Assembly (NCBI GenBank): GCA_965221775.1
Contig: CBDCSU010000005.1
Location: 576,001-640,000, forward strand
Direction of reading: 5' to 3'
From: Candidatus Latescibacterota bacterium
GTDB lineage: Bacteria > Latescibacterota > UBA2968 > UBA8231
DNA: 64,000 nt
The position numbers and the translations under genes are program-made. Of this stretch, positions 23,483-45,642 are shown one piece after another; position 1 is the first letter of the stretch, and each line of letters starts with the position of its first letter. The notes below the pieces were generated by a model. The model did not search any database and had not been told where the DNA came from. It worked only from the letters and a program-made list of their open reading frames with translations.

Positions 23483-23483
23483 C

Positions 23484-25905: not shown

Positions 25906-26828
25906 GGCAGCCACCCCGCGGAGCGGAGGACCGAGAGGGCGAGGTCGATCAGGGCGAGGGGGACGATGCGCGTCCAGGCCGCGCGCGCGAGCCCCGCGGG
26001 CGTGCCGTCCGACAGGCTGGACCCGAGGACCACGGCCGAGGCCAGCACCGCGGCGGCGGTCAGACCGGGCAGGATCTCCACCCAGCCGGCCGCCGCCGGC
26101 AGGCCGCCGCCGAAGAGGTGGTAGGCGAGGAGGGCGGCCGCCCCCATCTGCAGGTACCGCGACAGGGACAGCCACACCGGTGCCGTTCCGGAGGCCGGAC
26201 GCAGCCCCGCCCGGCGGCCGCCGAGCACCGATCCGGTGCAGCGGCAGAGGATGGCGAGGGCCCCGACCCAGGCCGCCGCCCCCGCCGGATGGGACCACAG
26301 GGGCCAGGCCCCCGGGGTGCGGGAGTACGCCGCCAGCACCGGACCGCCGTCGATGACCAGCGCCGCCGCCACCAGCAGAACCGCCAGGTGGCATCCGATG
26401 ATGGCCCCGGCGCCCGCCATCAGGGCCCGTTGCCCCTCGGCCCCGGCCAAGGCCGCCGGCAGCAGCCACGCCTGGACCGAGACCGCCAGCAGCGCCACCA
26501 GCAGCAGGGCCTGCACCGTTCCGCCCCCGGGGGCCACCCCCGGAAGAGACAGGCCTCCCACGCCAGCGCCGGGGGGCAGCAGAGCGACCAGGGCCAGAGC
26601 CGGCAGCAGGGCGGCGAAGGCGGCGGCCCCCGCTCCGGGGGCCGGCCTTCCCGATCGTGCCATCACCTTGGCGGCGTCGGCCACGGGACCGAGGAGGGGC
26701 GGACGGCGCAGACCGTTGACGCGGGCCAGCGCCGCACGCTCGACGATGGCGCTGACGAAGGCGAGACCGAGGGTACCGAGGAAGACGAGGAAGGCGTCGC
26801 CGGAGGAGATGTCGGCAGAGGAGGTCAC
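25896..26828 (-). CDS. nuoH: NADH-quinone oxidoreductase subunit H-like (highly divergent)
   Basis: VER...GPVADAAKV, C-terminal AWTRIVPLAL, about 8 TM segments. Confidence 0.72.
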   Translation of the reverse strand: MTSSADISSGDAFLVFLGTLGLAFVSAIVERAALARVNGLRRPPLLGPVADAAKVMARSGRPAPGAGAAAFAALLPALALVALLPPGAGVGGLSLPGVAPGGGTVQALLLVALLAVSVQAWLLPAALAGAEGQRALMAGAGAIIGCHLAVLLVAAALVIDGGPVLAAYSRTPGAWPLWSHPAGAAAWVGALAILCRCTGSVLGGRRAGLRPASGTAPVWLSLSRYLQMGAAALLAYHLFGGGLPAAAGWVEILPGLTAAAVLASAVVLGSSLSDGTPAGLARAAWTRIVPLALIDLALSVLRSAGWLPWS

Positions 26829-29752: not shown

Positions 29753-30168
29753 GCCGCCTCTCCCGAGACCAGGTCGTCGAGGCGCCCGGGGGTCAGCCCC
29801 TCGAAGAGGCGACCCCCGCGCTCGAAGGCGGGTGCCGCCGAGCAGACGCCGAGGCAAGGGACGGGGATCACGAGATCGCCGAGACGTTCTCGCATCCGGC
29901 GGACGACCTCGTCGCCCCCCATGAGCCGGCAGCTCAACCCCGCGCAGACGCGCACCCGGTCCCGGGACCGGCCGGCGCCGCGGCTGGAGGCGATCCCGGC
30001 GACGGCGGCGGCCGACAGTCCCGTGAGCCCGGCGATCCAGCGCGCCGCCTCGAGCTCGCAGGCGCCGCGGTCGGTCAGCACCAGGTCGATGAGGGGCATC
30101 AGGGCCCCGGAGGGCCTGGGGTAGCGGCTCAGCAGCTGCCGGGCGCGATGCTCCAGGGCCTCGTTCAC
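29749..30168 (-). CDS. nuoE: NADH-quinone oxidoreductase subunit E-like
   Basis: RYP...ALMPL, VCAGLSC...CLGVC..AP ([2Fe-2S] N1a). Confidence 0.85.
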   Translation of the reverse strand: MNEALEHRARQLLSRYPRPSGALMPLIDLVLTDRGACELEAARWIAGLTGLSAAAVAGIASSRGAGRSRDRVRVCAGLSCRLMGGDEVVRRMRERLGDLVIPVPCLGVCSAAPAFERGGRLFEGLTPGRLDDLVSGEAA

Positions 30169-31685
30169 CGGTCCATCTCGGAGGCGATGACGTTGAGGCT
30201 GGCCACCACCTGCGGTGCCTGGGCGTAGCCGACGCCCGCCAGCAGCGCCGGGAGGACGCGGAAGTGGTACAGCGAGGGCGAGCGCAGGTGGACCCGGACC
30301 GGGCCGCCGGCGCCGTCGGAGACCAGGTAGAAGGCCAGCTCGCCGTCGGCGGACTCGATGGGGAGGTAGATGTCGGACCGCTCGGGACGATACCCGTGCC
30401 CGTCCATCCAGCGCTCGAAGTGGTCGATCAGCTCGGCGGGCTCCGTGGAGCGCACCGTCGGCCGGGGGGCCTCGTGGGCCAGGGTCGGTCCGCCGGGGGC
30501 GCCGGCCAGGCACTGGCGGGCGATGGAGAGGGACTCCCCCATCTCCTCGATGCGAACCCGCGTGCGCTCGACGACATCGCCGGAGTCGGCCGTGGGCACC
30601 CCGAACCGGACCTCCCCGTAGGCGAGGTAGGGCTCGGTGCGCCGCACGTCGAGGTCGATGCCCGCGGCGCGGGCGGCCGGCCCCGTAACCCCGGCGCCCA
30701 GGGCCTCGGCGGCGTCGAGAACCCCGGCGCCGGAGAAGCGGCGGCGCCAGTCCCGGTGGCCCACCGTGCCGCGCAGGGCATCGGCGCGCAGCCGGTCGAC
30801 GGCGCCCCCCAGGTCGGCCAGCAAGCGGCCGGCGCCGGCGGGCACGTCGGCGGCGATCCCGCCGATGCGCTGGGTGCCGGTGGCCCAGCGGCAGCCGCTG
30901 GCGGCGGCGAGAAAGCGCGCCGCCGCCTCCCGGGCGGTCAGGGCCTGGCCCCACAAGACCGAATCGGGCCCCGCCAGGTTGGCCAGCCAGGCGCAGTGGG
31001 CGGCGATGCGGCTGATCTCGGCCAGCAGCATGCGCACCCAGGTGCACCGGGGCGGCGGCTTGATCCCCAGCAGGGCCTCGGCGGCGAGGATCGCCGCCAG
31101 GCCGGGCACGAACGGCGCCTGCTCGTTGAGGCTCTCGGCCAGCACCGGCAGCTGGGCCCAGGTACGGCTCTCGGCGAGTCTCTCGAAGCCGCTGTGGAGC
31201 CGTCCCGGGCGGGCCGTGGCCGTTTCGATCCGGCCGCCGCGCAGGCGCGCCCCCAAGTCGAGCCGGAAAGGGGTGGCCTCGGAGGGGTCGGGGATCGGCA
31301 CCTCCCCCTCCGGCGGCGGCGGCATCTCTCCGGGGACCATGGCCGGCGGCGCGGGGAACAGCGGCCGCAGGTCCTCCCGCCCCTCGATCCGCATCCCGAA
31401 GCGGCCGGCCATCTCCCGCTCCGGCCAGTCGGCGGCGGGCCAGATGTGGGCCAGCCCCGGCAACTCGCCGGCCCCGGTGGCGGTCAGCCGGATCCGGTTC
31501 CCCGCGGCCGAGCGGAGCTGGTAGACCGCGCGGAGTGGAGAGTCGGTGCCGGCGCCGCCCACGGCGGTGAGGTCGACGAGATGCAGCGTCGGGTCCGCCG
31601 CCAGCAGCGCCTCCACCTGCGGCTCCAGCCGGCCGGCGGAGACCTCCATGGCCGCCGCGGCCTCCGGCGGGGCGGCGGCCGTCAC
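30165..31685 (-). CDS. nuoCD: Fused NADH-quinone oxidoreductase subunit C/D-like (divergent)
   Basis: NuoC part DLTAV...VYQL...WPAADWPEREM..FG; NuoD part EISRI..H, GVTGP..RA.G..D.R...PY, ES.DGE, EMDR C-terminus. Confidence 0.85.
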   Translation of the reverse strand: MTAAAPPEAAAAMEVSAGRLEPQVEALLAADPTLHLVDLTAVGGAGTDSPLRAVYQLRSAAGNRIRLTATGAGELPGLAHIWPAADWPEREMAGRFGMRIEGREDLRPLFPAPPAMVPGEMPPPPEGEVPIPDPSEATPFRLDLGARLRGGRIETATARPGRLHSGFERLAESRTWAQLPVLAESLNEQAPFVPGLAAILAAEALLGIKPPPRCTWVRMLLAEISRIAAHCAWLANLAGPDSVLWGQALTAREAAARFLAAASGCRWATGTQRIGGIAADVPAGAGRLLADLGGAVDRLRADALRGTVGHRDWRRRFSGAGVLDAAEALGAGVTGPAARAAGIDLDVRRTEPYLAYGEVRFGVPTADSGDVVERTRVRIEEMGESLSIARQCLAGAPGGPTLAHEAPRPTVRSTEPAELIDHFERWMDGHGYRPERSDIYLPIESADGELAFYLVSDGAGGPVRVHLRSPSLYHFRVLPALLAGVGYAQAPQVVASLNVIASEMDR

Positions 31686-32020
31686 GGAGACTCCTGCCGG
31701 GCGGGCCGCCCCCCCCGGCGCCCGGCGTGGATCAGGGCGATGGCGATGACCAGGACGAGGAGCAGCATCGGAAGGAAGCCCCCGGCGCTTTCGGACTCGG
31801 CGGCCAGGAGCACGAGGAGCACGACGGCGCCGGAAAGGGCCGGGGCGAGCCAGGCGAGGGGCCGCCATGGGTCACCGGTCTCGACCTCGCCGGCGGCGGG
31901 CTCAGCGGACGACGGGGTCTCCCTGACGGGGCCGGCGAGGGCCCGCCGCAACAGGGCGGCCAGTACCCCCAGCAGCAGCCAGAGGCCGAAGTAGGTGAAG
32001 AGGGGCAGGTAAGCGGTCAA
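31682..32020 (-). CDS. nuoA: NADH-quinone oxidoreductase subunit A-like (highly divergent)
   Basis: TTG start with GGAGG RBS, YLPLF N-terminus, 3 TM segments, 112 aa, first gene of the nuo run. Confidence 0.62.
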   Translation of the reverse strand: MTAYLPLFTYFGLWLLLGVLAALLRRALAGPVRETPSSAEPAAGEVETGDPWRPLAWLAPALSGAVVLLVLLAAESESAGGFLPMLLLVLVIAIALIHAGRRGGRPARQESP

Positions 32021-32079
32021 CGACCCGGCCTCCCGGGGTTGGAGGTGGTCCCGGCGCCGCGGGAGACCGCCCTTCGGCT

Positions 32080-32337
32080 TCAGACGGTGGCCTTCTCGCG
32101 GATCTCCTGCTGCCCCGCGGCGGGTGCCGCAGCCGGATCGAAGCGCCGCTCGGGAACGTCGCCGCACGAGTCCCCTGGCCGGGCGCCGCACTCGCACATG
32201 GGCTCGCCTTCGGCGGCCTGCAGGTTGGCCAGGCCGCCGCAGGAGCCGGTGATCCTGCGGTTGCCGAGGATCACTCCCACGGCCATGCCGGCGATCACCA
32301 GGGCGAAGACGACGAGGGCTGATAGAAAGAGGGCCAT
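32080..32337 (-). CDS. nqrM: Na+-NQR maturation factor NqrM
   Basis: TM segment ...GMAVGVI, then ITGSCGGL...CECG....SC; directly after nqrF. Confidence 0.85.
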   Translation of the reverse strand: MALFLSALVVFALVIAGMAVGVILGNRRITGSCGGLANLQAAEGEPMCECGARPGDSCGDVPERRFDPAAAPAAGQQEIREKATV

Positions 32338-32366
32338 GGGCGGTGTGCAAGCGCTCGGAGGGAGCC

Positions 32367-33605
32367 TCAGCTGCCGAAGTCGTCGAAGCGGATCATCTCC
32401 TCTTCGACGCCCAGATCGTCGAGCATGGCGAGGACCGCCGTGAGCATCATGGGAGGGCCGCAGAGGTAGTACTCGATGTCCTCCGGCGCCGGGTGCTTGC
32501 TCAGGTACTCGTCGAGCACGACCTGGTGGATGAAGCCGGTGGGGCCGGTCCAGTTGTCCTCGGGCAGGGGCTCGGACATGGCCACGTGGAAGGAGAAGTT
32601 CGGGAACTTCTCCTCGAGGTCGCGGAAGTGGTCCTCGTAGAACAACTCCTTGCTCGACCGCGCCCCGTACCAGTAGGAGACCTTGCGTTGCGTGCCCTCG
32701 GTGTGGAACAGGTGGAACAGGTGCGAGCGCAGAGGCGCCATGCCGGCGCCGCCGCCGATGTAGCACATCTCGCGCTCGGTCTCCTGGATGTAGAACTCCC
32801 CGTAGGGGCCGGAGATCGTCACCTTGTCGCCCGGGTCGAGGGCGAAGGTGTACGACGAGGCCAGGCCCGGGTTGACCTTCTCCCAGCCGCCGGCCTTGCG
32901 GTCGATGGGCGGCGTGGCGATGCGGATGTTGAGCATGACGATGTCGCCTTCGGCCGGGTGGTTGGCCATGGAGTAGGCCCGCACCGCCGTCTCCGTGCCC
33001 ACCGTGCGCAGGTCCCAGACCTTGAACCGGTCCCAGTCCTCGTGGAAGCGCTCGTCGATGTCGAAGTCCCGGAAGCTGCACTCGAAGGGCGGCACCTCGA
33101 TCTGGATGAAGCCGCCGGACTGGAAGTCCAGGGTCTCGCCCTCGGGCATCTTGAGGACCAGCTCCTTGATGAAGGTCGCCACGTTGTCGTTGGAGACGAC
33201 CTCGCACTCCATGCGCTTCACCGAGAACACCTCGGGCGGGACCTCGATCTTCATGTCCTGCTTGACCGTCACTTGGCAGGAGAGGCGCTCCCCCTCCTTC
33301 TCCTCGCGCCGGGTGATGTGCTCCTTCTCGGTGGCCAGGATCTCGCCGCCGCCGTCGTGGACCTTGACCCGGCACTGGGCGCAGGTGCCGCCGCCGCCGC
33401 AGGCCGAGGAGACGAAGAGGCCGTTGTCGGCGAGCACGTTCAGCAGCTTGCCGCCCGCCGGGGTGACCAGGTCGCGCTCGCCGTTGACCTCGATGTTTAC
33501 GTCGCCCGTGGCCACCAGCTTCGAGCGCGCCGCCAGGATGACGGCCACCAGGGCCAGGACCACGCCGGTGAACATGCTCACGCCGCCGAGGATGCTGTCG
33601 ATCAT
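32367..33605 (-). CDS. nqrF: Na+-translocating NADH:quinone oxidoreductase subunit F
   Basis: [43 protein letters not shown]. Confidence 0.98.
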
Positions 33606-33619
33606 CAGTCGGTCGCTTC

Positions 33620-34234
33620 CTACAGCTGGATGCCGGAGAAGGCCATGAAGGCCATGGCCATGAGGCCCACGGTCATGAAGGTGATGCCCAGGCCGCGCAG
33701 GCCATGGGGTATGTCGGCGTAGCGCAGCTTCTCGCGGATGCCGGCGAGTCCGACGATGGCCAGGGCCCAGCCGACGCCGGAGCCGAAGCCGAAGACGACG
33801 CTCTCGCCGAAGCCGTAGTCGCGCTCGACCATGAACAGGGAGCCGCCGAGGATGGCGCAGTTCACCGTGATCAGGGGCAGGAAGATGCCCAGGGCGGTGT
33901 ACAGGGCCGGCACGTACTTGTCGAGGAACATCTCCAGGATCTGAACGCTGGCGGCGATGACACCGATGTAGCTGATGAGCCCCACGAAGGTGAGGTCGAC
34001 GCCGCCGAGGCCGAGGGCCGCCAGGGCCTCCTCGCGCAGGAGATGGCGGTAGACCAGGTTGTTCAGGGGCACGGTGATCGTCTGCACGACGACGACGGCG
34101 ATGCCGAGGCCGAAGGAGGTGGAGACGCGCTTGGAGACGGCCAGGAAGGTGCACATGCCGAGGAAGAAGGCGAGGGCGATGTTCTCGACGAAGACCGCCT
34201 TGACGAAGAGGTTGAGGCCGGCCTCGAACATCAC
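33620..34234 (-). CDS. nqrE: Na+-NQR subunit E
   Basis: [31 protein letters not shown]. Confidence 0.97.
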
Positions 34235-34884
34235 ACCCCCTCCTCAAGCGGCTGATCGACCGCAGGATCTTTGGCGATCTGCCTGGGTTTGAACCATCGC
34301 AGCACCCAGATGAAGGCGCCGATGATGAAGAAGGCGCTCGGCGGCAGCAGCATCAGGCCGTTGGGCACGTACCAGCCGCCCTCCGACGCCAGGGCCAGGA
34401 TCTCGGCGCCGAAGAGCTTGCCCGAGCCGAAGAGCTCGCGGAAGACCCCCACCACCAGCAGGATCAGGCTGTAGCCGAGGGCGTTGCCGAGGCCGTCGAG
34501 CATGCTCAGCCCGACGCCCTCCTTCATGGCGAAGGCCTCGGCCCGGCCCATGATGATGCAGTTGGTGATGATGAGCCCCACGAAGACCGACAACTGCTTG
34601 CTCATGCCGAAGGCATAGGCGCGCAGAAACTGGTCGACGATGATCACGAGGGAGGCGATGACCGTCATGTGCACGATCATGCGGATGTTGGTGGGGATGT
34701 GGGTGCGGATCAGGCTGATGGCGCCGTTGGAGAAGACGAGGACGAAGATCACCGCCAGGCACATGGTGACCGACGTCTCGAGCTTGCTGGTCACCGCCAG
34801 GGCCGAGCAGATCCCGAGGATCTGCAGGGCGATGGGGTTGTCCTCGAAGACAGGGGCCAGCAGGGTGTCTCGGGCCTTGCCCAT
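34231..34884 (-). CDS. nqrD: Na+-NQR subunit D
   Basis: [35 protein letters not shown]. Confidence 0.97.
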
Positions 34885-34887
34885 GGT

Positions 34888-35664
34888 TCAAGCCTCTCCT
34901 TCGTCCCGCAATCGCTCCAGGAAGGGGCCGTAGCCCTCCCCGCCGAGCCAGTAGTGGAGCATGTCCTGCACGCCGCGCGAGGTGATCGTCGCCCCCGACA
35001 GCCCGTCGACGCTGTGCACGGCGTCCGGGGCGCCGGCGGCGACGGCACCCCGCGGGATGCGGATCGCCACCCGGCCGTCGTCGCCGAAGGCGCGCTTGCC
35101 GTTCCACTGCGCCTTCCACGCCGGGTTGTCGACCTCGCCGCCGAGGCCGGGGGTCTCGCCGTGCTGGTAATATACGAGGCTGCGGATCGTGTCGAGGTCG
35201 TCCCGGTCGAGGGCGACGAAGCCGTAGAGGGTCGACCACAGTCCCCGGCCGAAGATCGGCATGATCACCTTGTCGACCTCTCCCCGGCGGCTGACCAGGT
35301 AGACGGGCATCAGTCTGGCGCGGCGCCGGATGCCGGCGCGGCTGCCCAGCTCGGAGGTGTCGACCCCCTGCTCGGGGTCGGCGGCGGCGGCGATGTAGTC
35401 GTAGGCGCCGGGATCGACGCCGTCCACGTAGGCGCCGGTGGACAGGTCGACGATGCGGACCTCGATGCGCTCGAAGAGCTCGTCGATGGTGCGGCCCTCC
35501 TCGGCGAGGCCCGCCGCCATCAGGATGTTGCGCTTCTTGTCCAGCAGCTTGTTGATCTCCTGGGTGGGCCGCAGCACCACCGCCGCCCCGGAGACCAGGA
35601 CCGAGCAGACGACGCACAGGAGGAAGGCGACGGTGAAGGTCTGGCCCATGCTCTCTCTGGCCAT
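34888..35664 (-). CDS. nqrC: Na+-NQR subunit C
   Basis: GRGLWS, HGETPGLG, flavinylation motif VDGLSGATITS. Confidence 0.96.
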   Translation of the reverse strand: MARESMGQTFTVAFLLCVVCSVLVSGAAVVLRPTQEINKLLDKKRNILMAAGLAEEGRTIDELFERIEVRIVDLSTGAYVDGVDPGAYDYIAAAADPEQGVDTSELGSRAGIRRRARLMPVYLVSRRGEVDKVIMPIFGRGLWSTLYGFVALDRDDLDTIRSLVYYQHGETPGLGGEVDNPAWKAQWNGKRAFGDDGRVAIRIPRGAVAAGAPDAVHSVDGLSGATITSRGVQDMLHYWLGGEGYGPFLERLRDEGEA

Positions 35665-35675
35665 GGCGCCGTCCC

Positions 35676-36884
35676 CTACGATACGGCCGTGCGCAGGGCG
35701 CGCCGGCGGATGTTGGCCTGCACCACGAGGTAGTCGAAGACCGGGGCGAAGACGTTGCCGAAGAGGATGGCGAGCATCACCCCCTCCGGGAAGGCCGGAT
35801 TGACGACCCGGATGAGCACGGTCATGACCCCGATCAGGGCGCCGTAGAGCCACTTGCCGAGGTTGGTGAAGGAGGCCGACACCGGGTCGGTGGCCATGTA
35901 TACGCAACCGAAGGCGAAGCCTCCGAGCAGCAGGTGCCAGACCGGGTCGAGGGCGAACATGTGGTTGGTCTGGCTGTCGACCTGGTGCAGCAGCCAGGCC
36001 AGCAGGAAGGTGGTGGCCGTCATGCTCGCCATGATGCGCCACGAGCCGATGCCGGTGGCGATGAGGATGACGGCGCCGATGAGGCAGGCCAGGACCGAGG
36101 TCTCGCCCATCGACCCGGGGAGCACCCCGAGGAAGGCCTGCATCTTGGTGAAGCCCGCCTCCATGGGGGCGATGCCGTCGGCCGGGACCTGGCCGAGGGG
36201 GGTGGCCCGGGAGTAGCCGTCGACGGCGACCCAGATGCGGTCCCCCGTGATCTCCACCGGGTAGGCGAAGTAGAGGAAGGCGCGGGCCGTGAGGGCCGGG
36301 TTGAGGAAGTTCTTGCCCGTGCCGCCGAAGATCTCCTTGCCGATGACGACGCCGAAGGAGATGCCCACCGCCACCTGCCACAGGGGGATCGTCGGCGGCA
36401 GGGTGAGGGGGAAGAGCATGCCCGTCACCAGGAAGCCCTCGTTCACCTCGTGGCGGCGGATCGTCGAGAACAGGGCCTCCCAGAAGCCGCCCACGGCGTT
36501 GCACACCAGGAAGACCGGCAGGAACCAGAGGGCGCCGTGGACGACGTTGGCCACCAGGCTGCCCGGGTCGACGCCGACCCCGAGGACGGTGAGGACGACC
36601 CCGCGCCAGCCGTCGGCGGTGGTGCGGCCCAACTCGGCCAGGGCCAGGTTCGCCTGGTACCCCGTGTTCCACATGGCCATGAAGATGCACGGCACCATTG
36701 CCAGAACGACGGTGATCATCATGCGCTTCAGGTCGAGGCCGTCGCGCACGTGGGCGGCGTTGCGGGTGACGTCGGAGGGGGTGTACAGGAACGTGTCGAC
36801 CAGCTCGTAGAGCGGATAGAGGCGCTCGAGCCGTCCGCCCCGCTCGAAGTGGGGCTCCACCGAGTCGAGGAGCTGGCGCAGCAC
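35676..36884 (-). CDS. nqrB: Na+-NQR subunit B
   Basis: [55 protein letters not shown]. Confidence 0.97.
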
Positions 36885-36886
36885 GA

Positions 36887-38245
36887 TCAGAAGTCCCTCT
36901 CGATGAGTTCGAGGTTCTGCCGCAGCAGCGGCCCGTACTCGGTCTTGCCCGGGCAGACGAAGGTGCACAGGCCGAGGTCTTCCTCGTCGAGCTCCAGCGC
37001 GCCCAGCTCGACGGCGCGCTCGGCGTCGCCGGTGATCAGGGCCCGCAGCAGGAAGGTGGGCAGGATGTCGAGGGGCATGACCGCCTCGTAGGAGCCCACC
37101 GGCACCATCGCCCGCGGCGAGCCGTTGGTGCTGGTGTCGAAGGCGAAGCGCCGCCGGGGGAGCATGGCCGAGGCGAAGACCCGCTTGACCGAGAACTTGT
37201 CCGCCCCCGGGGACTGCCAGCCGAGAAGCTCGCGCGCGCGGTTCTCGCGCACCGCCGAGACCTGCAGGTGCCAGCGGCCGAGGAAGTCGAGAGGCCCGGA
37301 GGCCTGGCGCCCGGCCAGCAGCGATCCGGAGACGACGCGCGCCTCCACGCCCGAGGTCAGCTCCCCCGCCACGAGATCGCCGAGGCAGGCGCCCATGCGC
37401 GTGCGCAGGAGCCGGGGCCGCTCGACCAACGGCCCGCCGAGGGCGACGACGCGCTCGTGGTTGATGCGCCCCGTCAGGAACAGGTCGCCCACGGCGGCCA
37501 CGTCCTGGTAGTTGATCCAGAACACCTGCTTCTGCAGGCCGGCGCCGTCGAGGAAGTGGATGTGGGTCCCGGCGAGGCCGGCCGGGTGGGGCCCGCTGAA
37601 CTCGGCCACGGTGACGTCGGCGCCGTCCGCCGGGATGGCGGCGCCCGGGGCCTTGCACAGGTAGATCTCGCCGGCTCCCAGTCGGCCGAGGGCGGCCAGG
37701 CCGGCGCGGAAGGCGTCCTCGCGGCCGGCGAGGGCGACGGCGGGGTCGGCGCACAGCGGGTTGGTGTCGATGGCGGTTACGAAGATCGAATGCGGCTGAG
37801 TACCCGGCAGCGGCACCTTGCTGTAGGGTCGCTGCCGCAGCCCGGTCCACAGGCCCGACTGCACGAGGGCGCCGCGCACCTGCTCGGGACTCAGGTCCTC
37901 CGGGCGCCGGCCGCCGATGTCGAAGGTCTCCTCGCCGACCCGGTCGTCGAGCTCGACGATGACGGAGAGGAGCCGGCGCTTGTCGCCGCGGTGGACGCCG
38001 GCGACCCTGCCCGCTCCCGGCGAGGTGAAGCGCAGTCCGGGCCGCCGCTTGTCCTCGAAGAGCAGCTGGCCGGCGCGGACGCTGTCGCCCTCCTGCACGG
38101 CCATCGTCGGCCGCAGGTCGTGGTAGTCGAGGCCGACGAGGGCCACCCGCGCCGGGGCGGGCGCGTCCTCCACGACCTGCCGGCACTCGCCCGTGATCGG
38201 CAGGTCGAGGCCCTTGCGGAGGGTGAAGGAGCGGTTCTCAGCCAT
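36887..38245 (-). CDS. nqrA: Na+-NQR subunit A
   Basis: [38 protein letters not shown]. Confidence 0.97.
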
Positions 38246-38485
38246 GGGAGCGGCCCATGCCCGCGAGGCGGATGGCCGCCCCGGGGGGTGGCGCGCCCGC
38301 GGCGGCGGTACGGGGTCGAAACCGGTGTTTGGGAGACGCTGGCCGGAGGGCCCGATGTGGAGGGAGGGCGCAGACCGGACGCGTCGGGTGGCAGGACAAG
38401 GCTTGCTGTCGGCGATCCGTGGGGGGAGGTGTGGACTGGATACGCACCGGGAACCGGTGCTGTGACATCGTCCTGAAGTTGAGTT

Positions 38486-38514
38486 AGGTTAGGGCCGCCG
38501 CCGAGGACTGTCAA
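38486..38514 (-). promoter_or_regulatory. Strong sigma70 promoter of the nqr(-nuo-atp) cluster
   Basis: Minus strand TTGACA-17 nt-TAACCT in an AT-richer patch, about 240 nt upstream of nqrA. Confidence 0.7.
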
Positions 38515-38594
38515 GGATTCCCGCACACCCGTCGAGGTGCCATGAAAACGAGCCCGTCGGCGCCGGCCGGCCGGCAGCCGAAGGTGGTGAATCG

Positions 38595-39830
38595 GTGAGC
38601 CGGGGGGTCGTCGTCACCGGCTTGGGGGCAGTAACGCCTCTCGGCTCCGGGGCGGCGCGTTTCTGGGACCGGTTGTGCGCCGGCCGGTCCGGGGTCGGGC
38701 CGATCACCCTCTTCGATGCCGGGGCCTTCCCGGTGCGCATCGCCGGCGAGGTCGCCGGCTTCAGCCTGCCCGCCGGGATCGACCGCAAGCGTCTCCGGCG
38801 CCTGGACCGCTACGCCCTGTTCGGAGTCGCGGCGGCGCTGCAGGCCTGGCGCGACGCCGGCGTCGAGGACCACGATCCCTGGCAGGCGGGGATCGTCCTC
38901 GGCTCCAGCCACGGCGGCGAGAGCACGGCCCTCCAGGCCGCGGCGGCCCTCGGTCCCCGGCCCTCGCCGAAAGCGGCCAGCCCCCTGGTGATCCCGCGCA
39001 TGCTCAACAACATGGCCGCCGCCCAGGCGGCGATGCTACTCGACCTGCGCGGCCCGGGCTTCGCCCTCGCCTCGGCGTGCGCCACCGGCGGCCACGCCCT
39101 CGGCGAGGCATCCGAGATCATCCGCAGGGGCGATGCCGAGGTGATGGTCGCCGGCGCCGCCGAGGCCTGCATCACCCCCCTTACCCTGGCCGGCGACCAC
39201 GCCCTCGGAGCCCTGTCGCGGCGCAGCGCCGAACCGCACCGGGCCTGCCGCCCCTTCGACCGCGACCGCGACGGTTTCGTCCTCGCCGAAGGTGCGGCCG
39301 CCCTGGTCCTGGAGGAGCGGGAGCACGCCCGCAGACGCGGCGCCCGCGTCTACGCCGAGCTCTCGGGGTACGGGGCGACGACGGACGCCGTCCACGAGAC
39401 GCGCCCGGACCCGACGGGTACGGCCGCGGCGCGGGCGATCACCCGCGCCCTGGCCAAGTCCGGGACCGGCCCCCGCCAGGTCGACGCGGTCTTCGCCCAC
39501 GCCGCCGGCACCCGGGCGGGCGACGCCGCCGAGGCCCGCGCCCTCGGCGCCTCCCTCGGGGCGGCCCTCGGCGCCATCCCGGTGACCGCCGTCAAGTCGA
39601 TGACGGGCCACATGTTCGCCGCCTCCGGGGCGGCCCAGGCGGTGGCCGCGGTCAAGGCGATCGAGGCGGGGGCCGTCCCCCCCACGATCAACTGCGGCCG
39701 CATCGACGTGACCGGGATCGCCTGCGTGCCCGGCGAGATGCTGCGGAAGCCGCTGTCGCGGGTGCTCTCCAACTCCTTCGGCTTCGGCGGCCACAACGCC
39801 GCCCTCCTCTTTTCGGCGGCGGCCGGCTGA
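38595..39830 (+). CDS. fabF: Beta-ketoacyl-ACP synthase II-like (FabF family), first gene of the bio operon
   Basis: VVVTGLG, catalytic Cys in SACATG, RPFDRDRDGFV, His in AHAAGT, KSMTGH, SNSFGFGGHN. Confidence 0.9.
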   Translation: MSRGVVVTGLGAVTPLGSGAARFWDRLCAGRSGVGPITLFDAGAFPVRIAGEVAGFSLPAGIDRKRLRRLDRYALFGVAAALQAWRDAGVEDHDPWQAGIVLGSSHGGESTALQAAAALGPRPSPKAASPLVIPRMLNNMAAAQAAMLLDLRGPGFALASACATGGHALGEASEIIRRGDAEVMVAGAAEACITPLTLAGDHALGALSRRSAEPHRACRPFDRDRDGFVLAEGAAALVLEEREHARRRGARVYAELSGYGATTDAVHETRPDPTGTAAARAITRALAKSGTGPRQVDAVFAHAAGTRAGDAAEARALGASLGAALGAIPVTAVKSMTGHMFAASGAAQAVAAVKAIEAGAVPPTINCGRIDVTGIACVPGEMLRKPLSRVLSNSFGFGGHNAALLFSAAAG

Positions 39831-40822
39831 TGACCGAGTCCCCCACCCTTCCCGCCTTCGCCGCCCTCGCCGACAAGGCGATCGCCGGCGAACCCCTTGC
39901 GCGCGAGGAGTGCCACGCGGTTCTCGCCACGCCGGACGGCGAGGTTCCCGGTCTGCTCGCCGAGACCCACCGCGTGCGCCGCCGCTTCTGCGGCGACAAG
40001 GTGCACCTGCACGTCCTGACGAACGCCAAGAGCGGCCTCTGTCCCGAGGACTGCGGCTACTGCTCGCAGTCGCGCCTGTCGGAAGCGGCGATCGAGAAGT
40101 ACCCCATGGTCAGCCGGGAGCGGCTCCTCGAAGAAGCACACGCCGCCCGCCGCTCCCGGGCCCGGCGCTTCTGCATCGTCACCAGCGGCCGCGGCGCCAC
40201 CTGGGGCGAGGTGGAGCACCTGGCCGACGCCGTGCGCACCATCCGCGAGGAGGTCGGCATCGGGATCTGCGCCTGCGTCGGTCTCCTCGACGAAGAGAAG
40301 GCGAAGGCCCTGAAGGAGGCCGGTGTCGACCGGTTGAACCACAATCTCAATACCAGCGAGCGGTTCACCCCCGGCATCGTCACCACCCACGGATACGACG
40401 ACCGCGTGAAGACGTTGGAGGCGGCGCGCAAGGCGGGCCTCGACCTGTGCAGCGGCGCCATCTTCGGCATGGGGGAAACCGACGATGACGTGATCGACGT
40501 CCTCATGGCGCTCCGCGACCTCGACCCGCAGTCGATACCGGTCAACTTCCTCCATCCCATCGACGGAACCCCCCTGGAAGGGACGTGGAGGCTGACCCCC
40601 CTGCACTGCCTGCGGATCCTGTCTCTGGCGCGGCTGCTGCACCCGCACCGGGAGATCCGCGTCGCCGGCGGGCGCGAGCTGCATCTGCGGTCGCTGCAGC
40701 CGCTGGCCCTCTACGCGGCCAACTCGATCTTCGTCGAGGGCTACCTCACCACCCCCGGACAGGGCACGAGGGAGGCCCTGCGGATGATCGAGGACATGGG
40801 GTTCGAGGTCGAAGAGGCGTGA
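39830..40822 (+). CDS. bioB: Biotin synthase
   Basis: NAKSGLCPEDCGYCSQS (radical SAM), NHNLNT, CSG.I.GMGE, SIPVNFL, AGGRE; ATG overlaps the fabF TGA. Confidence 0.97.
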   Translation: MTESPTLPAFAALADKAIAGEPLAREECHAVLATPDGEVPGLLAETHRVRRRFCGDKVHLHVLTNAKSGLCPEDCGYCSQSRLSEAAIEKYPMVSRERLLEEAHAARRSRARRFCIVTSGRGATWGEVEHLADAVRTIREEVGIGICACVGLLDEEKAKALKEAGVDRLNHNLNTSERFTPGIVTTHGYDDRVKTLEAARKAGLDLCSGAIFGMGETDDDVIDVLMALRDLDPQSIPVNFLHPIDGTPLEGTWRLTPLHCLRILSLARLLHPHREIRVAGGRELHLRSLQPLALYAANSIFVEGYLTTPGQGTREALRMIEDMGFEVEEA

Positions 40823-42171
40823 CCGCGGGGCCGCCGCCCGGCATCTGGAACGCCTTCACGCCGATGGCCCGCTACGACAGCGAGCCGAGGCTGGTCATCG
40901 ACCGCGCCGAGGGCAACCGCATCATCGACAGGGACGGCCGCGAGTACATCGACGGCGTGGCCTCGATCTGGGCGATCGTCCACGGCCACGGGCACCCGCA
41001 CATCGTCGAGGCGATCCGGCGCCAGGCGGAGCGGCTGCAGCACAGCACCCTCCTCGGCGCCGCCCACTCCCCCGCCCTCGAGCTGACGCAACGGCTCGCC
41101 GCGCACGTGCCCGGGGGGCTTACCCGCTTCTTCTACAGCTCCGACGGCGCCAGCGCCGTCGAGGCGGCCCTCAAGATGGCGCTCCAGTACTGGGTCAACA
41201 CCGGCCGGCCCGAGCGCCGCCGCTTCGCGGTGATGGAGATGGCCTACCACGGCGACACCCTCGGCGCCGCCTCGCTGGGAGGGGAGGGGGCCTTCCGCAA
41301 GCCCTACGAGTCGGCCATGTTCGAGCCCCTGCGGTTCGCCAACCCCCATCCCCGGGGCTGCGGGCTCTGCTCCCCCGAAGGCGGATGCAGCCTCGCCTGC
41401 GTCGGGTCCCTGGAGCGTCTGCTCGACGAGCGCGGCGGAGAGATCGCCGCGGTGGTCGTCGAGCCCCGGGTGCAGGGGGCCGCGGGGATCGTCGTCGCCC
41501 CGGAGGGACATCTGGCCCGGGTCGCCGACCTCTGCCGCTCTCACGGCGTGCTGCTTATCGCCGACGAGGTGGCCACCGGCTTCGGCAAGACCGGCGCCAT
41601 GTTCGCCTGCGACCTCGAGGGGGTCAGCCCCGACATCATGGTGCTGGGCAAGGGGATCAGCGGCGGCTGCCTGCCGCTGTCGGCGACGGTGGCGAGCGAG
41701 GGTGTCTACGAAGCCTTCCACGACGCGCACGACTACGCCAAGACCCTCTACCATGGACACACCTACGGGGGCAACCCGATCGCCTGCGCCGCCGCCCTGG
41801 CGAGCCTCGACATCTTCGAGCGCGAGCCGGTCCTGGCGAGGGTTGGCGACCGCGCCGCCTGCCTCGGCGAGAGGCTGAGAGAGGTCCTCGGCGAACATCC
41901 CCTCGTGGGGGAGATCCGCCAGCAGGGCCTGATGGCCGCCGTCGATCTGGTCGCCGACCGCTGCTCCCGACGGCCGCTGCCCGCCTCGGAGCAGACCGGA
42001 TGGCGGGCCTGCATGAAGGCGCGGGACCGCGGCGTCTTCGTCCGCCCCATCGGCGACACCGTGGTGGTCATGCCCCCCCTCTCCATCGAGGAAGGCGAGC
42101 TCTCACAGATCTGCGAGGCGGTGAGGTATGGGCTCGACAGCGTCGCCCGGTCCACCCCGGCCCTGGGCTGA
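40819..42171 (+). CDS. bioA: DAPA aminotransferase
   Basis: W..FTPM, DGVASIW..VHGH, AVEAALKMA.QY, YHGDT, DEVATGFG, GKGISGG, HGHTY.GNP. Confidence 0.95.
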   Translation: MTAGPPPGIWNAFTPMARYDSEPRLVIDRAEGNRIIDRDGREYIDGVASIWAIVHGHGHPHIVEAIRRQAERLQHSTLLGAAHSPALELTQRLAAHVPGGLTRFFYSSDGASAVEAALKMALQYWVNTGRPERRRFAVMEMAYHGDTLGAASLGGEGAFRKPYESAMFEPLRFANPHPRGCGLCSPEGGCSLACVGSLERLLDERGGEIAAVVVEPRVQGAAGIVVAPEGHLARVADLCRSHGVLLIADEVATGFGKTGAMFACDLEGVSPDIMVLGKGISGGCLPLSATVASEGVYEAFHDAHDYAKTLYHGHTYGGNPIACAAALASLDIFEREPVLARVGDRAACLGERLREVLGEHPLVGEIRQQGLMAAVDLVADRCSRRPLPASEQTGWRACMKARDRGVFVRPIGDTVVVMPPLSIEEGELSQICEAVRYGLDSVARSTPALG

Positions 42172-43309
42172 GTTCCTGCGCTCGGAGCGCCGGCGCCTCG
42201 GCCGGCTCGGTCTGCGCCGGTCGGTGGTGACCCCGGAGAGCCGCGCCGGGGTCCGGGCCACCCTCTCCGGCCGCGAGTACGTCCTCTTCACCTCGAACGA
42301 CTACCTCGGCCTCGCCGCCCATCCGGAGGTGACCGCCGCGGCCGGGGAGGCAGCCCGCCGCTTCGGCGCCGGTGCCGCATCGGCGCGGCTGCTGCACGGC
42401 TCCACCCCCCTGCACGAGGACCTGCAGGAACGCCTGGCGCGGCTCACGGGGCGGCCTTCCTCCCTGCTCTTCAGCTCGGGGTACATGGCCAACCTGGGGG
42501 TCCTCGCCGCCCTGGCCGGGCGGGGGGACGCGATCTTCTACGACGAGCGCTCCCACGCCTCGATCATCGACGGCGCCAGGCTGTCCCGCGCCACCGCACT
42601 GGCCTTCCCGCACAACGACGCCGGCCGCCTCGACGACCTCCTGCGCCAGACCCCCGCCCGCCGGCGCATGGTCGTCACCGAGAGCGTCTTCAGCATGGAC
42701 GGCGACCTGGCGCCCCTCCGGGCCCTGGGGGAGACCGCCTCGCGCCACGAGGCGCTGCTGGTCGTCGACGAGGCGCACGCCATCGGGGTCTTCGGGGATG
42801 GCGCCGGTCTCCTGGGGGACCTTGATCTCGAGATCCCGGCCGTCATCACCGGGACCCTGTCGAAGGCGCTGGGCTCGATCGGCGGCTTTGCCGCCGGCCA
42901 CGGGGCCCTCATCGAGTACCTCGTCGACCGCGCCCGCACCTTCATCTTCGATACCGCCCTGCCGCCGTCGGCGGTTGCGGCGGCGGCCGCCGCCCTCGAG
43001 GTCGCGCGGAACGAGCCCTGGCGCCGGAAGCGGGTCCTCGACCTCGGCGCGACGCTGCGCTCCGGTCTGCAGTGCCTCGGCGGCCCTGACTGCCACTCCG
43101 CCTCGCAGATCGTGCCGCTGCTCCTCGGCAGGCCGGCCGCGGCGGTAGCCGCGGAGGAACATCTCAAGAGCCACGGGATCCTGGCACGCGCCGTGCGGCC
43201 CCCCGCGGTGCCCCGCGGCACGTCGCGGATCCGCTTCGGGGTCACCGCCGCCCACGAGGAGGAGCACCTGCGGCAGGTCATCGGGGCGATGGAGTCCTTC
43301 GTTGGGTAG
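42128..43309 (+). CDS. bioF: 8-amino-7-oxononanoate synthase
   Basis: SNDYLGL, SGYMAN, HASIIDG, HND, ESVFSMDGD, DEAH, GTLSKALG. Confidence 0.95.
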   Translation: MGSTASPGPPRPWAEFLRSERRRLGRLGLRRSVVTPESRAGVRATLSGREYVLFTSNDYLGLAAHPEVTAAAGEAARRFGAGAASARLLHGSTPLHEDLQERLARLTGRPSSLLFSSGYMANLGVLAALAGRGDAIFYDERSHASIIDGARLSRATALAFPHNDAGRLDDLLRQTPARRRMVVTESVFSMDGDLAPLRALGETASRHEALLVVDEAHAIGVFGDGAGLLGDLDLEIPAVITGTLSKALGSIGGFAAGHGALIEYLVDRARTFIFDTALPPSAVAAAAAALEVARNEPWRRKRVLDLGATLRSGLQCLGGPDCHSASQIVPLLLGRPAAAVAAEEHLKSHGILARAVRPPAVPRGTSRIRFGVTAAHEEEHLRQVIGAMESFVG

Positions 43310-44003
43310 GATCGTGCTGGTGACCGGGACCGACACCGGCGTCGGCAAGACGGTCGCCGCCGCCTGGCTGGCGTGGAAGGCGTCGAGGGCGGGAAGGGTG
43401 GCCCTGCTTAAGGCGGTGCAGACCGGCGCCGGTCCCGGGGTCGACGGCGACGAGGCGTTCTACCGCGGAGCCCTCCGCGGCACCGGCGTGACCCTGGGGA
43501 CGCTGGCCTCCTTCCCCGAGCCGCTGGCGCCGCTGATCGCGGCGAGGCGCGCCGGACGGCCGATCGACTTCGAGGGCCTGGCGCGGCAGTGCGAGTCCGT
43601 GGCCGCGGCTCACGACCTCACTCTCGTGGAGGGCTCGGGAGGGCTCCTGGTGCCGATCGACGAGCGGCGGGATGTCGCCGACCTCGCCCGGCGCCTGAAG
43701 GCCTGCCTGGCCGTCGTCGTCCGCCCCGGCCTCGGGACGCTGAACCACACCGCCCTCACCCTGGAGGCGGCGGAGCGCCGGGGCCTGGAGGTCCCCCTGC
43801 TGATCTGCAGCGGAACCTCACCCGACGCGGACGTGGTCGAGGCCGAGAACCTGCGCTTCTTCGCGGCCCTGCGGGAGGCGCGCCAGGAGCGCGCGCCGAT
43901 GGCGTTGATGGTGATCGAGCGCGCCCTCGGAGGCGACGCCTCCAGGCCGGAGAGGCTCGCCGTCAGGATCGAGGGACCGCCGCCGGATTGGCTGCCCGCT
44001 TGA
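43302..44003 (+). CDS. bioD: Dethiobiotin synthetase
   Basis: TGTDTGVGKT, K.VQTG, VEGSGG, LGTLNHT.LT. Confidence 0.93.
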   Translation: MGRIVLVTGTDTGVGKTVAAAWLAWKASRAGRVALLKAVQTGAGPGVDGDEAFYRGALRGTGVTLGTLASFPEPLAPLIAARRAGRPIDFEGLARQCESVAAAHDLTLVEGSGGLLVPIDERRDVADLARRLKACLAVVVRPGLGTLNHTALTLEAAERRGLEVPLLICSGTSPDADVVEAENLRFFAALREARQERAPMALMVIERALGGDASRPERLAVRIEGPPPDWLPA

Positions 44004-44026
44004 GCCGCCCCTGCCGGCCTCCGGTC

Positions 44027-44056
44027 TTGATCGCCCGGAGGCCGGCCGCCTATACT
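44027..44056 (+). promoter_or_regulatory. Putative sigma70 promoter of the amino-acid symporter
   Basis: TTGATC-18 nt-TATACT. Confidence 0.55.
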
Positions 44057-44118
44057 GGAACGCGCAGCCTGCCGCAGAATCCCTCACCCACACACCCGAC
44101 CCGAAAGAGGAGGAATCC

Positions 44119-45642
44119 ATGGGCAGAGCCCTGGGAGCCCTCTTCCTGCTCACCACCATGGCGGCCCCGGCCCTGGCCGAGGACGCAGCCGGTGGGAGCG
44201 GGATCCAGCATCACCTGAGCCGCCTCGACGCGCTCTTCGCCGACACCGTCAAGCTGCTGGAGACCTTCCTCTTCGTCGACTTCGGCACCGGCGTCCCCCT
44301 CATCGTCGCCGTCCTCGTGGCCGGCGGCGTCTACTTCAGCTTCTACTTCGGCTGGCTGTCGATCCGCGGCTTCAAGCACTCCATCGACATCATCCGCGGG
44401 CGCTACGACAACCCCGACGACCCGGGCGAGATCTCCCACTTCCAGGCCCTCACCAGCGCCCTGTCGGCGACGATCGGCCTCGGCAACATCGCCGGCGTCG
44501 CCATCGCCGTCAGCGTCGGCGGTCCCGGGGCCGTGTTCTGGATGCTCCTCACCGCCCTCATCGGCATGTCCTCCAAGCTCGCCTCCTGCACCCTGGCGGT
44601 GATGTACCGCAACGTCCACCCCGACGGCCGCGTCTCCGGCGGACCGATGTACTACCTGGAGAAGGGGCTGGCGACGATCGGCCTGGCCCAGTTCGGCCGC
44701 ACCCTGGCGGTGATCTTCGCCTTCCTCACCATCGGCGGCTCCCTGGGCGGCGGCAACATGTTCCAGGCCAACCAGACCCTCGAGATCCTCGCCACCGTGT
44801 CGCCCTGGTTCAAGAGCTACAACTGGGTCATGGGCCTGATCATGGCCGGCCTCGTGGCCCTGGTCATCATCGGCGGCATCCGCCGCATCGGCCGGGTGAC
44901 GTCGCGGATCGTCCCCGGCATGTGCCTGCTCTACGCCATCACCGCGATCTTCATCATCGTGTGGAACATCCAGGCGGTGCCGGCCACCCTCGCGCGGATC
45001 GTCTCCGACGCCTTCACCGGTCCGGCGATGTACGGCGGCTTCCTCGGCGTCCTCGTCATGGGCGTCCGGCGCGCCGCCTTCTCCAACGAGGCCGGCCTCG
45101 GCTCGGCCGCCTTCGCCCACGCCGCGGCCAAGACCGACGAGCCCGCGCGCGAGGGCATGGTGGCGATGATCGGCCCCTTCATCGACACCATCGTCATCTG
45201 CCTGATGACGGCGCTGGTCTGCACCATCACCGGCGTCTTCGAGCAGCCCGAGTTCCAGTCGGGGGGCGGCAGCATCGTCGGCGTGCGCATGACCGCCGCC
45301 GCCTTCGACTCCTTCATCCCCGGGGCCCGCTACGTGCTGGCCGTGGCGGTCCTGCTCTTCGCCTACTCGACGATGATCTCCTGGTCCTACTACGGCGAGC
45401 GCGCCTGGGAGTACCTCTTCGGCCAGGGCTCCGTCCTCATCTACCGCCTTATCTTCGTGTTCTTCGTCTTCGCCGGATCGGTGGTCACCTTGGGCAACGT
45501 CATCGGGTTCTCGGACATGATGATCCTGGGGATGGCTTTCCCCAACATCCTCGGCGGGGTGCTGCTGAGCCGGCAGATCAAGGCGACGCTGAACGAGTAC
45601 TGGGGGCGGCTGCAGCGCGGCGAGATGAAGGTCTATCGCTGA
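44119..45642 (+). CDS. Alanine/glycine:cation (Na+) symporter, AGCS family
   Basis: ISHFQAL..ALSATIGLGNIAGVA, GGPGAVFW, GGPMYY, FSNEAGLGSA, PFIDT. Confidence 0.95.
   Translation: MGRALGALFLLTTMAAPALAEDAAGGSGIQHHLSRLDALFADTVKLLETFLFVDFGTGVPLIVAVLVAGGVYFSFYFGWLSIRGFKHSIDIIRGRYDNPDDPGEISHFQALTSALSATIGLGNIAGVAIAVSVGGPGAVFWMLLTALIGMSSKLASCTLAVMYRNVHPDGRVSGGPMYYLEKGLATIGLAQFGRTLAVIFAFLTIGGSLGGGNMFQANQTLEILATVSPWFKSYNWVMGLIMAGLVALVIIGGIRRIGRVTSRIVPGMCLLYAITAIFIIVWNIQAVPATLARIVSDAFTGPAMYGGFLGVLVMGVRRAAFSNEAGLGSAAFAHAAAKTDEPAREGMVAMIGPFIDTIVICLMTALVCTITGVFEQPEFQSGGGSIVGVRMTAAAFDSFIPGARYVLAVAVLLFAYSTMISWSYYGERAWEYLFGQGSVLIYRLIFVFFVFAGSVVTLGNVIGFSDMMILGMAFPNILGGVLLSRQIKATLNEYWGRLQRGEMKVYR

Follow-up and report, generated by a model that had tools for sequence, protein, structure and literature searches.

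A gene for a FabF-type ketoacyl synthase (KAS II) heads the biotin operon in a genome of a Candidatus Latescibacterota bacterium (GenBank assembly GCA_965221775.1). We propose that the encoded enzyme is dedicated to biotin synthesis, in which it would build 3-oxopimeloyl-ACP (ACP, acyl carrier protein) from an unmasked omega-carboxy primer as the KAS II counterpart of BioZ, and we put the probability of this reading at approximately 65%. It probably makes the seven-carbon precursor of biotin, and would do so by a route that still lacks a biochemical description. The stretch of DNA analysed, hereafter the window, comprises 64,000 nucleotides (nt) of contig CBDCSU010000005.1 (C5:576001-640000) from a genome of 5.36 Mb in 6 contigs that is 96.8% complete. 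On its plus strand, positions 38595-44003 hold the genes for the KAS II-like enzyme, bioB, bioA, bioF and bioD as one gapless five-gene unit, and no acpP, fabG, fabD, methyltransferase or hydrolase gene was found in or beside this cluster.

The bio-linked KAS II and its acyl pocket

The first gene of the operon (38595-39830) encodes a condensing enzyme of 411 amino acids with the motifs GSSHGG, HETRP and FAHA(A/T)GT, which are characteristic of a subfamily described below. It is followed on the same strand by bioB, biotin synthase (39830-40822; TIGR00433, 387.3 bits), by bioA, the aminotransferase converting 7-keto-8-aminopelargonic acid to 7,8-diaminopelargonic acid (40819-42171; TIGR00508, 479.6 bits, the match beginning at residue 87 of a long frame), by bioF, the 8-amino-7-oxononanoate synthase that consumes the pimeloyl thioester (42128-43309; TIGR00858, 418.3 bits, just below the cut-off of 426.45), and by bioD, dethiobiotin synthase, which starts with the TTG at 43302 or the GTG at 43314 and ends at 44003 (TIGR00347, 123.6 bits). 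The ATG of bioB overlaps the KAS stop codon in the sequence TGATG and the GTG start of bioA overlaps the bioB stop (GTGA), while bioA and bioF overlap by 44 nt and bioF and bioD by 8 nt if the TTG at 43302 is the bioD start.

The KAS II encoded by the first gene is of full length and has every catalytic and gating residue. The domains PF00109 (164.7 bits) and PF02801 (105.6 bits) make up the two-domain ketoacyl-synthase fold, the best solved-structure relatives were all FabF (1j3n, 332 bits), and no FabH (KAS III) model was among the 24 NCBIfam matches of the protein. The score against the fabF equivalog TIGR03150 was 440.2 bits, below the cut-off of 493.75, and the subfamily model NF005589 was matched at 427.6 bits, above its cut-off of 387. 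The catalytic set Cys162, His302, His339 and Lys334 is intact, and Phe397 and Asp264 are present as well. An earlier note on this DNA had described the gene order fabF-bioB-bioA-bioF-bioD with its TGATG junction, the lack of acpP, fabG and fabD next to the fabF-type gene, and an intact Cys-His-His triad accompanied by the motifs GSSHGG and FAHAAGT. Gene content and coordinates, residues and motifs were all recovered as it had described them. The KAS gene is flanked by nqrA and bioB.

A separate fabH..acpP-fabF cluster is located at C5:193797-198072. It contains the housekeeping fabF (C5:193797-195014; TIGR03150, 625.7 bits), acpP beside it (C5:195058-195261) and fabH (C5:197104-198072; 368.8 bits), and the window KAS is 46% identical to its FabF. 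The bio-linked KAS is therefore a paralogue of the housekeeping FabF, and the possibility raised in the earlier note that it might be the only fabF of the genome is removed.

The 120 best database relatives of the window KAS were surveyed for sequence signatures and fell into two groups without overlap in three motifs, an intermediate sequence (P0102) being placed in the canonical group. The subfamily group (P0006-P0093) displayed GSSHGG, D(A/G)xHET(R/H/Q)P and FAHA(A/T)(G/S)T, and the canonical group (P0094-P0125) displayed G(S/T)(G/A)IGG, DAYH(I/V)TAP and NAHGTST. All three signature motifs were present in 73 of the 120 relatives and the canonical NAHGT(S/G)T in 30, the remainder being mostly fragments, and the spacing from motif 2 to motif 3 was 33 residues in 80/80. 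A maximum-likelihood tree was generated from 75 rows, consisting of every second full-length database match, the genome-derived members and FabF references (seven housekeeping FabF of two phyla, the genome's own housekeeping FabF and E. coli FabF), and a divergent KAS encoded on contig C6 of the same genome served as the outgroup. The signature rows formed one clade of 50 rows with an SH-like approximate likelihood ratio test (SH-aLRT) support of 98, and the 24 canonical rows stood apart. The phylogeny proposed in the earlier note thus places the bio-linked KAS in a distinct monophyletic clade, best described as a sequence-definable, previously undescribed and apparently biotin-dedicated KAS II subfamily.

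An alignment of 74 full-length subfamily members with 30 canonical FabF, E. coli FabF and the genome's own housekeeping FabF located the differences. Substitutions are given in the E. coli numbering of the literature, whereas residues written in the style of Cys162, His302, His339, His106 and Asp201 are numbered as in the window KAS. C163, H303, H340, K335, F400, D265, H268, T307 and N404 were kept in 74/74 subfamily members. The recurrent substitutions were M85W (73/74), G107S (72/74), I108H (73/74), L111E (74/74), I138L (74/74), A193C (69/74), F202D (73/74), M269E (71/74), S271 to R (62), H (10) or Q (2), adding up to 74/74, D289K (71/74), N301F (72/74), G304A (73/74), S333A (74/74) and E349Q (74/74). 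Housekeeping FabF, both of E. coli and of this genome, shares with the window KAS the fold family, the length, the catalytic residues, the GFGG gating loop and D265/N404; unlike it, the window KAS is not encoded beside acpP, scores under the TIGR03150 cut-off and has I108/F202, L111, M269, N301, G304 and E349 all replaced.

In the window KAS, the hydrophobic I108-F202 back gate is replaced by His106 and Asp201, and a further change, HETRP, affects loop 2, which lies over the malonyl site. I108 and F202 constitute the FabF back gate at approximately C7-C8 of the bound acyl chain, and the glutaryl-ACP methyl ester, an intermediate of biotin synthesis, corresponds in length to a C7 acid on the active-site cysteine (PMC9006962). 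The two residues are likewise described as gating the acyl pocket in PMC7138838, in which loop 2 (265-275) is presented as a gate and possible determinant of substrate specificity. By homology, polar or charged residues appear to have taken the place of hydrophobic ones at both back-gate positions and several neighbouring ones, where the far end of a C5 dicarboxylic chain would lie. The pocket motifs that the earlier note had found to deviate are accordingly clade-wide and fall on the published back gate of the FabF acyl pocket. Changes at the I108 position that limit the entry of the acyl chain are also reported for E. coli FabF I108F and for the mitochondrial KAS (M154) (PMC9006962), but those changes stay hydrophobic, whereas both gate residues are polar or charged in the window KAS.

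Linkage to the bio genes across two phyla

Linkage was assessed in 14 carrier genomes belonging to two phyla. A profile of the subfamily retrieved 7 of the 168 genomes in the window's phylum at 677-702 bits, all others scoring 513 or less; four of the carriers were members of the window's genus (G000, G002, G004 and G007) and three of a second genus, g22 (G121-G123). The order KAS-bioB-bioA was found in 7/7 of these, and the continuation bioF-bioD was seen in the four that were fetched further, namely the window genome and the three of g22, a genus in which the nqrA and symporter flanks are present too. Among 401 genomes of the class to which G169 belongs (a locus titled "uncultured Chloroflexia bacterium"), five carried the KAS, with scores of 683-720 bits. 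The arrangement was bioB-KAS in one (on a short contig) and bioF-bioA-bioD-KAS in two, and the KAS was unlinked in two. A sample of 401 genomes from the phylum of G169 added two further carriers, both with the order bioF-A-D-B-KAS, which in one of them is interrupted by a DUF5615 gene ahead of the KAS.

Altogether the KAS gene adjoined bio genes in 12 of the 14 carriers in at least four gene orders, and bioB was present in all 14. The neighbourhood survey envisaged in the earlier note consequently finds the bio linkage conserved across two phyla. None of 23 housekeeping fabF loci had a bio gene within 1.5 kb. No dedicated ACP, FabG-like or FabZ-like gene was present in the window cluster, the three g22 clusters or five clusters of G169's phylum. 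In this Chloroflexota carrier (G1309:C43), the carrier with the interrupted order, a DUF5615 (PIN-like) gene and an open reading frame (ORF) of 169 amino acids without a family lie between bioB and the KAS gene (locus L298, 11141-11500). The bio cluster of the two genomes with an unlinked KAS (G279:C145, locus L238, 9850-16747) reads bioB / bioY / bioF / bioA / bioD; here the transporter gene bioY lies on the other strand, and bioD is followed by a flavodoxin gene.

Of the 10 genomes in the window's genus, 4 have both the KAS (95-96% identical) and bioB, and the other 6 have neither. In G006, a genome of one contig, the flanks show 88-90% DNA identity to the window up to approximately positions 38559 and 44104 and are separated by approximately 1.96 kb. 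In G006 and G001 a gene for a TonB-dependent receptor of 610-637 amino acids, with Plug and beta-barrel domains, takes the place of the bio cassette (G006:C1:5348740-5350696, L294 500-2413, minus strand; G001:C88:27133-30090, L295 674-2506). Given this co-occurrence and the receptor gene at the same site, the five genes KAS-bioBAFD behave as one cassette that is gained and lost together. The site between nqrA and the symporter gene in this genus holds either biosynthesis genes or an outer-membrane importer.

The distribution also bears on a role of the KAS outside pimelate synthesis, as a short-chain fatty acid synthesis paralogue that travels with the bio cassette and makes, for example, octanoyl-ACP for lipoate. 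E. coli FabF I108F, with its tightened back gate, elongates mainly from C6 to C8 and stops there, and the mitochondrial KAS has a bimodal output including C8 (PMC9006962); the KAS being unlinked to bio genes in two genomes would suit such a role. However, the KAS is repeatedly linked to bioB, bioD or bioF, in two phyla and at least four arrangements, its presence exactly matches that of bioB within the genus and no lipoate or other lipid genes are adjacent, and we consider this explanation highly improbable.

Other genera of the same family have a bioB gene divergent from bioF-(X)-bioD-bioA and no KAS, and their BioB is 35-39% identical to the window BioB. X is an alpha/beta-hydrolase gene in four of six sister-genus clusters (G011, G013, G021 and G022) and is joined by a gene for a BioC-like methyltransferase (123 bits) in G021 and G022, while bioF and bioD are direct neighbours in G017 and G019. 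The clusters with a hydrolase or methyltransferase follow conventional BioC/BioH logic, and the KAS-bio unit set against the sister-genus clusters has the pattern of a putative non-orthologous displacement. The window BioB is 62-65% identical to the BioB of those Chloroflexota carriers with bioB in the bio cluster and 50-51% identical to the products of the isolated bioB of G449 and G501. The KAS-bio unit has probably moved horizontally between the two phyla, in either direction, replacing or substituting for the methyl-ester route, and it appears to be a portable cassette passed between Chloroflexota and the window's phylum.

Beyond the 14 carriers, a scan of genome contigs with universal KAS motifs yielded at least 80 ordinary fabF loci with 39-47% identity. 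A scan of metagenome contigs with a 62-residue piece of the window KAS yielded 10 loci with 30-48% identity, none of them of the subfamily and several resembling polyketide synthases (PKS). The search of a representative library returned PKS and generic FabF matches and no further members, and a listing of subfamily clusters named one cluster, assigned to a Chloroflexaceae bacterium.

Pimelate genes elsewhere in the genome were sought by family models. The best BioC match reached 55.2 bits against a cut-off of 184.95, with all 20 matches covering the S-adenosylmethionine (SAM)-binding part only, the best BioH match reached 48.3 bits against a cut-off of 206.95, and no BioW or BioG was found. 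Among the subfamily genomes tested, BioC was above the cut-off in 0/9 and BioW in 0/6. The absence of bioC, bioH, bioG and bioW, noted earlier for the operon, thus extends to the genome as far as the family cut-offs can tell, BioI and BioK lying outside the search.

These absences have to be read together with a third explanation, in which the KAS works inside a conventional BioC/BioH-type pathway and elongates malonyl- and glutaryl-ACP methyl esters that are poorly handled by the FabF or FabH of the host, with undetected methyltransferase and esterase genes at other places in the genome masking and unmasking the carboxyl. BioC-type enzymes are divergent and have unrelated replacements such as Tam and BioT, and several non-orthologous methyltransferases and esterases are known for pimelate synthesis (PMC12704756). 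Generic SAM-methyltransferases are matched at least 20 times in the genome. A BioC match at E<=1e-25 is also missing from five relatives that have bioB and no KAS, which counts against our proposal, because the BioC search is shown to be insensitive and its negative outcome is weak evidence; the absence of BioC from the carriers is not proven. On the other hand, the 12 linked clusters neither contain nor adjoin a methyltransferase or hydrolase gene, whereas sister-genus clusters carry such genes, and a polar pocket of His, Asp and Glu would be opposite to the purpose of the methyl-ester disguise. A function within the methyl-ester pathway is on balance improbable.

A second small FAS-like cluster beside dnaG (G000:C6:1032289-1035863, minus strand) was considered as a pimelate module and rejected, because its KAS occurs throughout the genus (10/10 genomes, 6 of which lack bioB); it was found in 0/15 other relatives searched. 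The cluster encodes a FabH-like protein (146 bits; 185.5 bits to NF006829, below the cut-off), a protein of 405 amino acids with a C-terminal FabZ-like domain, the divergent KAS used as the outgroup above (282 bits to fabF) and an ACP.

Candidate routes to the pimeloyl moiety

The proposed activity of the bio-linked KAS may be depicted as follows. An omega-carboxy acyl primer would be loaded on Cys162 without methyl masking. The primer would most likely be glutaryl, from coenzyme A (CoA) or ACP, which is favoured because of the gate position at C7-C8, and malonyl in a preceding round is also possible. Condensation with malonyl-ACP, with the participation of His302, His339, Lys334 and Phe397, would give 3-oxopimeloyl-ACP, which the housekeeping FabG, FabZ and enoyl reductase would convert to pimeloyl-ACP, and BioF would then use the pimeloyl moiety. 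The pair His106-Asp201, flanked by Glu109, Trp85 and Cys192, would close the long-chain pocket and offer the distal carboxylate a polar or charged partner at the depth that a C5 diacid would reach. Ordinary fatty acyl chains would thereby be kept out, and the need for BioC and BioH would be removed. The finishing steps by fatty acid synthesis of type II (FAS II) are plausible, since in vitro 3-ketopimeloyl-ACP, the free-carboxyl product of BioZ, is admitted to the FAS II cycle and processed by its enzymes (PMC12625853). The earlier note had suggested a dedicated FabF-type analogue of BioZ that elongates a malonyl or glutaryl primer without methyl masking. All the computational checks that it suggested turned out in its favour. 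Its first part is upheld by the separate paralogue, the linkage, the clade and the pocket, while the choice of primer (glutaryl, malonyl or both, on CoA or ACP) and the absence of methyl masking are what we infer.

Besides the insensitivity of the BioC search, several points weigh against this proposal. The pocket acids Glu109 and Asp201 alone would repel a carboxylate; we suggest that they pair with His106 instead of facing the substrate, a His-Asp pairing proposed by homology and not on structural grounds. Neither glutaryl-CoA nor glutaryl-ACP could be traced to a source, and the clusters examined contained no glutaryl-CoA-supplying gene. KAS II enzymes normally use acyl-ACP primers. The 14 carriers represent only approximately six independent lineages, and the sister pair G279 and G377 has the KAS away from the bio cluster. 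Finally, BioC, BioH, BioG and BioW were not detected, but the search did not extend to BioI, BioK, BioJ, BioV, BtsA, BioE or Tam/BioT-type enzymes.

The question of the primer leads to a de novo route that is equally free of methyl esters. Here the KAS would take a malonyl primer undecarboxylated to give 3-oxoglutaryl-ACP and, after reduction, perform a second round on glutaryl-ACP, and one gene together with the housekeeping FabG/Z/I would stand in for BioC and BioH, so that lysine-derived glutaryl-CoA would not be required. The lack of a glutaryl-CoA-supplying gene in the clusters examined, the use of ACP-bound primers by KAS II enzymes and the altered loop 2 over the malonyl site (HETRP) all speak for it. 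In Desulfovibrio, moreover, fab genes of the bio cluster are reported to be needed for biotin-free growth, and a route from malonyl-ACP to pimeloyl-ACP has been proposed (PMC10102598). However, the remodelled gate at C7-C8 is a poorer fit for a C3 primer than for a C5 diacid, C5 omega-carboxy intermediates would have to be accepted by the housekeeping FabG, FabZ and FabI, and the ACP, FabG and FabZ homologues that the Desulfovibrio cluster has of its own are missing in the window cluster. We regard priming with malonyl as rather unlikely. It is correspondingly doubtful that one KAS II with a polar back gate and the ordinary FAS II reductases and dehydratase suffice to turn malonyl-ACP into pimeloyl-ACP with neither a methyl ester nor lysine-derived glutaryl-CoA. 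Four pimeloyl routes have been characterised, BioC-BioH, BioI-BioW, BioZ and BioE (PMC12704756, December 2025), and such a single-KAS route, if true, would make a fifth, leading to the biotin precursor by way of one gene.

The nearest functional analogue of the window KAS is BioZ and its nearest gene-family precedent is DVU2563 of Desulfovibrio. BioZ is a KAS III (FabH-type) enzyme with a Cys-His-Asn triad and uses an acyl-CoA primer, whereas the window KAS is a KAS II (PF00109+PF02801, Cys-His-His-Lys). The determinants of specificity are also unrelated, being the beta8-alpha9 loop and Ala317 in BioZ and the back-gate His/Asp in the window KAS. The two are alike in being condensing-enzyme paralogues encoded in a bio operon, in the case of BioZ the alpha-proteobacterial bioBFDAZ, of genomes described as lacking bioC and bioH (PMC7645780, PMC12625853). 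They would also share the reaction, which for the window KAS is by proposal the condensation of an omega-carboxy primer with malonyl-ACP to 3-oxopimeloyl-ACP, finished by the housekeeping FAS II.

In Desulfovibrio vulgaris, the bio cluster DVU2558-DVU2565 includes the FabF-annotated DVU2563 in an organism described as being without bioC and bioH; transposon fitness data tie DVU2563 to biotin-free growth, and a methyl-ester-free route was proposed (PMC10102598). The Desulfovibrio cluster further encodes an ACP of its own, one FabG-like protein and two FabZ-like proteins, and it requires a nitroreductase-like gene, whereas the window KAS is alone with bioBAFD; this comparison is by published description. 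In the Desulfobacterota-type phylum of G573, a Desulfomonile metagenome-assembled genome, 0/401 genomes had a match at the level of the subfamily, and among 201 genomes of that phylum the 30 best bioF loci were all free of a KAS within 1.5 kb. A full-text literature search, which covered main texts and few subscription journals, returned no report of a FabF-type gene standing alone in the bio operons of Chloroflexota or of other groups and none of a His/Asp gate. The window KAS is best described as a variation on a known theme, the recruitment of condensing enzymes for the pimeloyl moiety.

Surroundings of the operon, habitat and implications

The operon is flanked upstream by the divergent nqrA gene (36887-38245, minus strand), which is part of an operon for the Na+-translocating NADH:quinone reductase (Na+-NQR), and downstream by a gene for a Na:alanine symporter (44119-45642). 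The G+C content of the window is 67-77%. The intergenic region from which nqrA and the KAS gene diverge (38246-38594), read from the sequence, contains the purine-rich GAAGGTGG 8-15 nt 5′ of the KAS GTG start, whose position is conserved in six genomes. The last approximately 200 nt before the KAS gene are 100% conserved in G007 and G004 and are not conserved in g22. The promoter scan scored no sigma-70-like promoter upstream of the KAS gene, nor was a BirA-, BioQ- or BioR-like operator found in this region, which is conserved within the genus only. An upstream ORF of 18 codons starts with the ATG at 38542 (38542-38598), and its TGA overlaps the KAS start in the sequence GTGA. It is kept in the two close relatives aligned and not in g22, and may be due to chance in G+C-rich DNA or encode a leader peptide.

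Directly after the bioD stop, a perfect 12-bp inverted repeat with a 10-nt loop (44013-44046, plus strand) was recognised by eye. It is a possible end of the operon, although the terminator scan left it unscored for want of a T run. It is followed by a promoter-like TTGATC-18-TATACT for the next gene (44027-44056), which came from the promoter scan. On the other side, a row of complex I genes (a 49 kDa/30 kDa fusion and 51 kDa, 75 kDa-like and antiporter-like subunits) adjoins the Na+-NQR row on the minus strand (window 20400-38245). The latter is complete-looking, with NqrA, NqrB-like, FMN-binding and NqrF-like proteins, and in the complex I stretch, with its 75-77% G+C, the AT skew is unusually strong (0.34-0.40).

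At least half of the sampled words of window positions 38400-44100 were found in 18 sequencing runs from nine studies, most of them labelled sponge metagenome, which suggests that the organism is a sponge-associated bacterium. A contig from one sponge metagenome DNA run spans 39672-40958, across both the KAS/bioB and the bioB/bioA junctions. Two metatranscriptome runs contained near-identical pieces of the KAS gene, bioB, the bioB/bioA junction, bioA and bioD, none of which spans the KAS/bioB junction. These are not proof of transcription, because RNA libraries may contain DNA and the KAS/bioB junction is unbridged. The supply of vitamins by symbionts is of interest in sponge communities.

The synthesis of the pimeloyl moiety is a variable and still incomplete part of bacterial biotin synthesis, in which the fab-like cluster of Desulfovibrio has genetic support only. 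The finding reported here defines a sequence-recognisable KAS II subfamily together with a structural hypothesis in which His/Asp take over the Ile/Phe positions of the back gate. Confirmation would close annotation gaps in bioB-positive genomes that seemingly have no pimelate pathway, provide a one-gene module for biotin and pimelate engineering, and show how the pocket of a fatty-acid ketosynthase may be re-tuned for a charged substrate.

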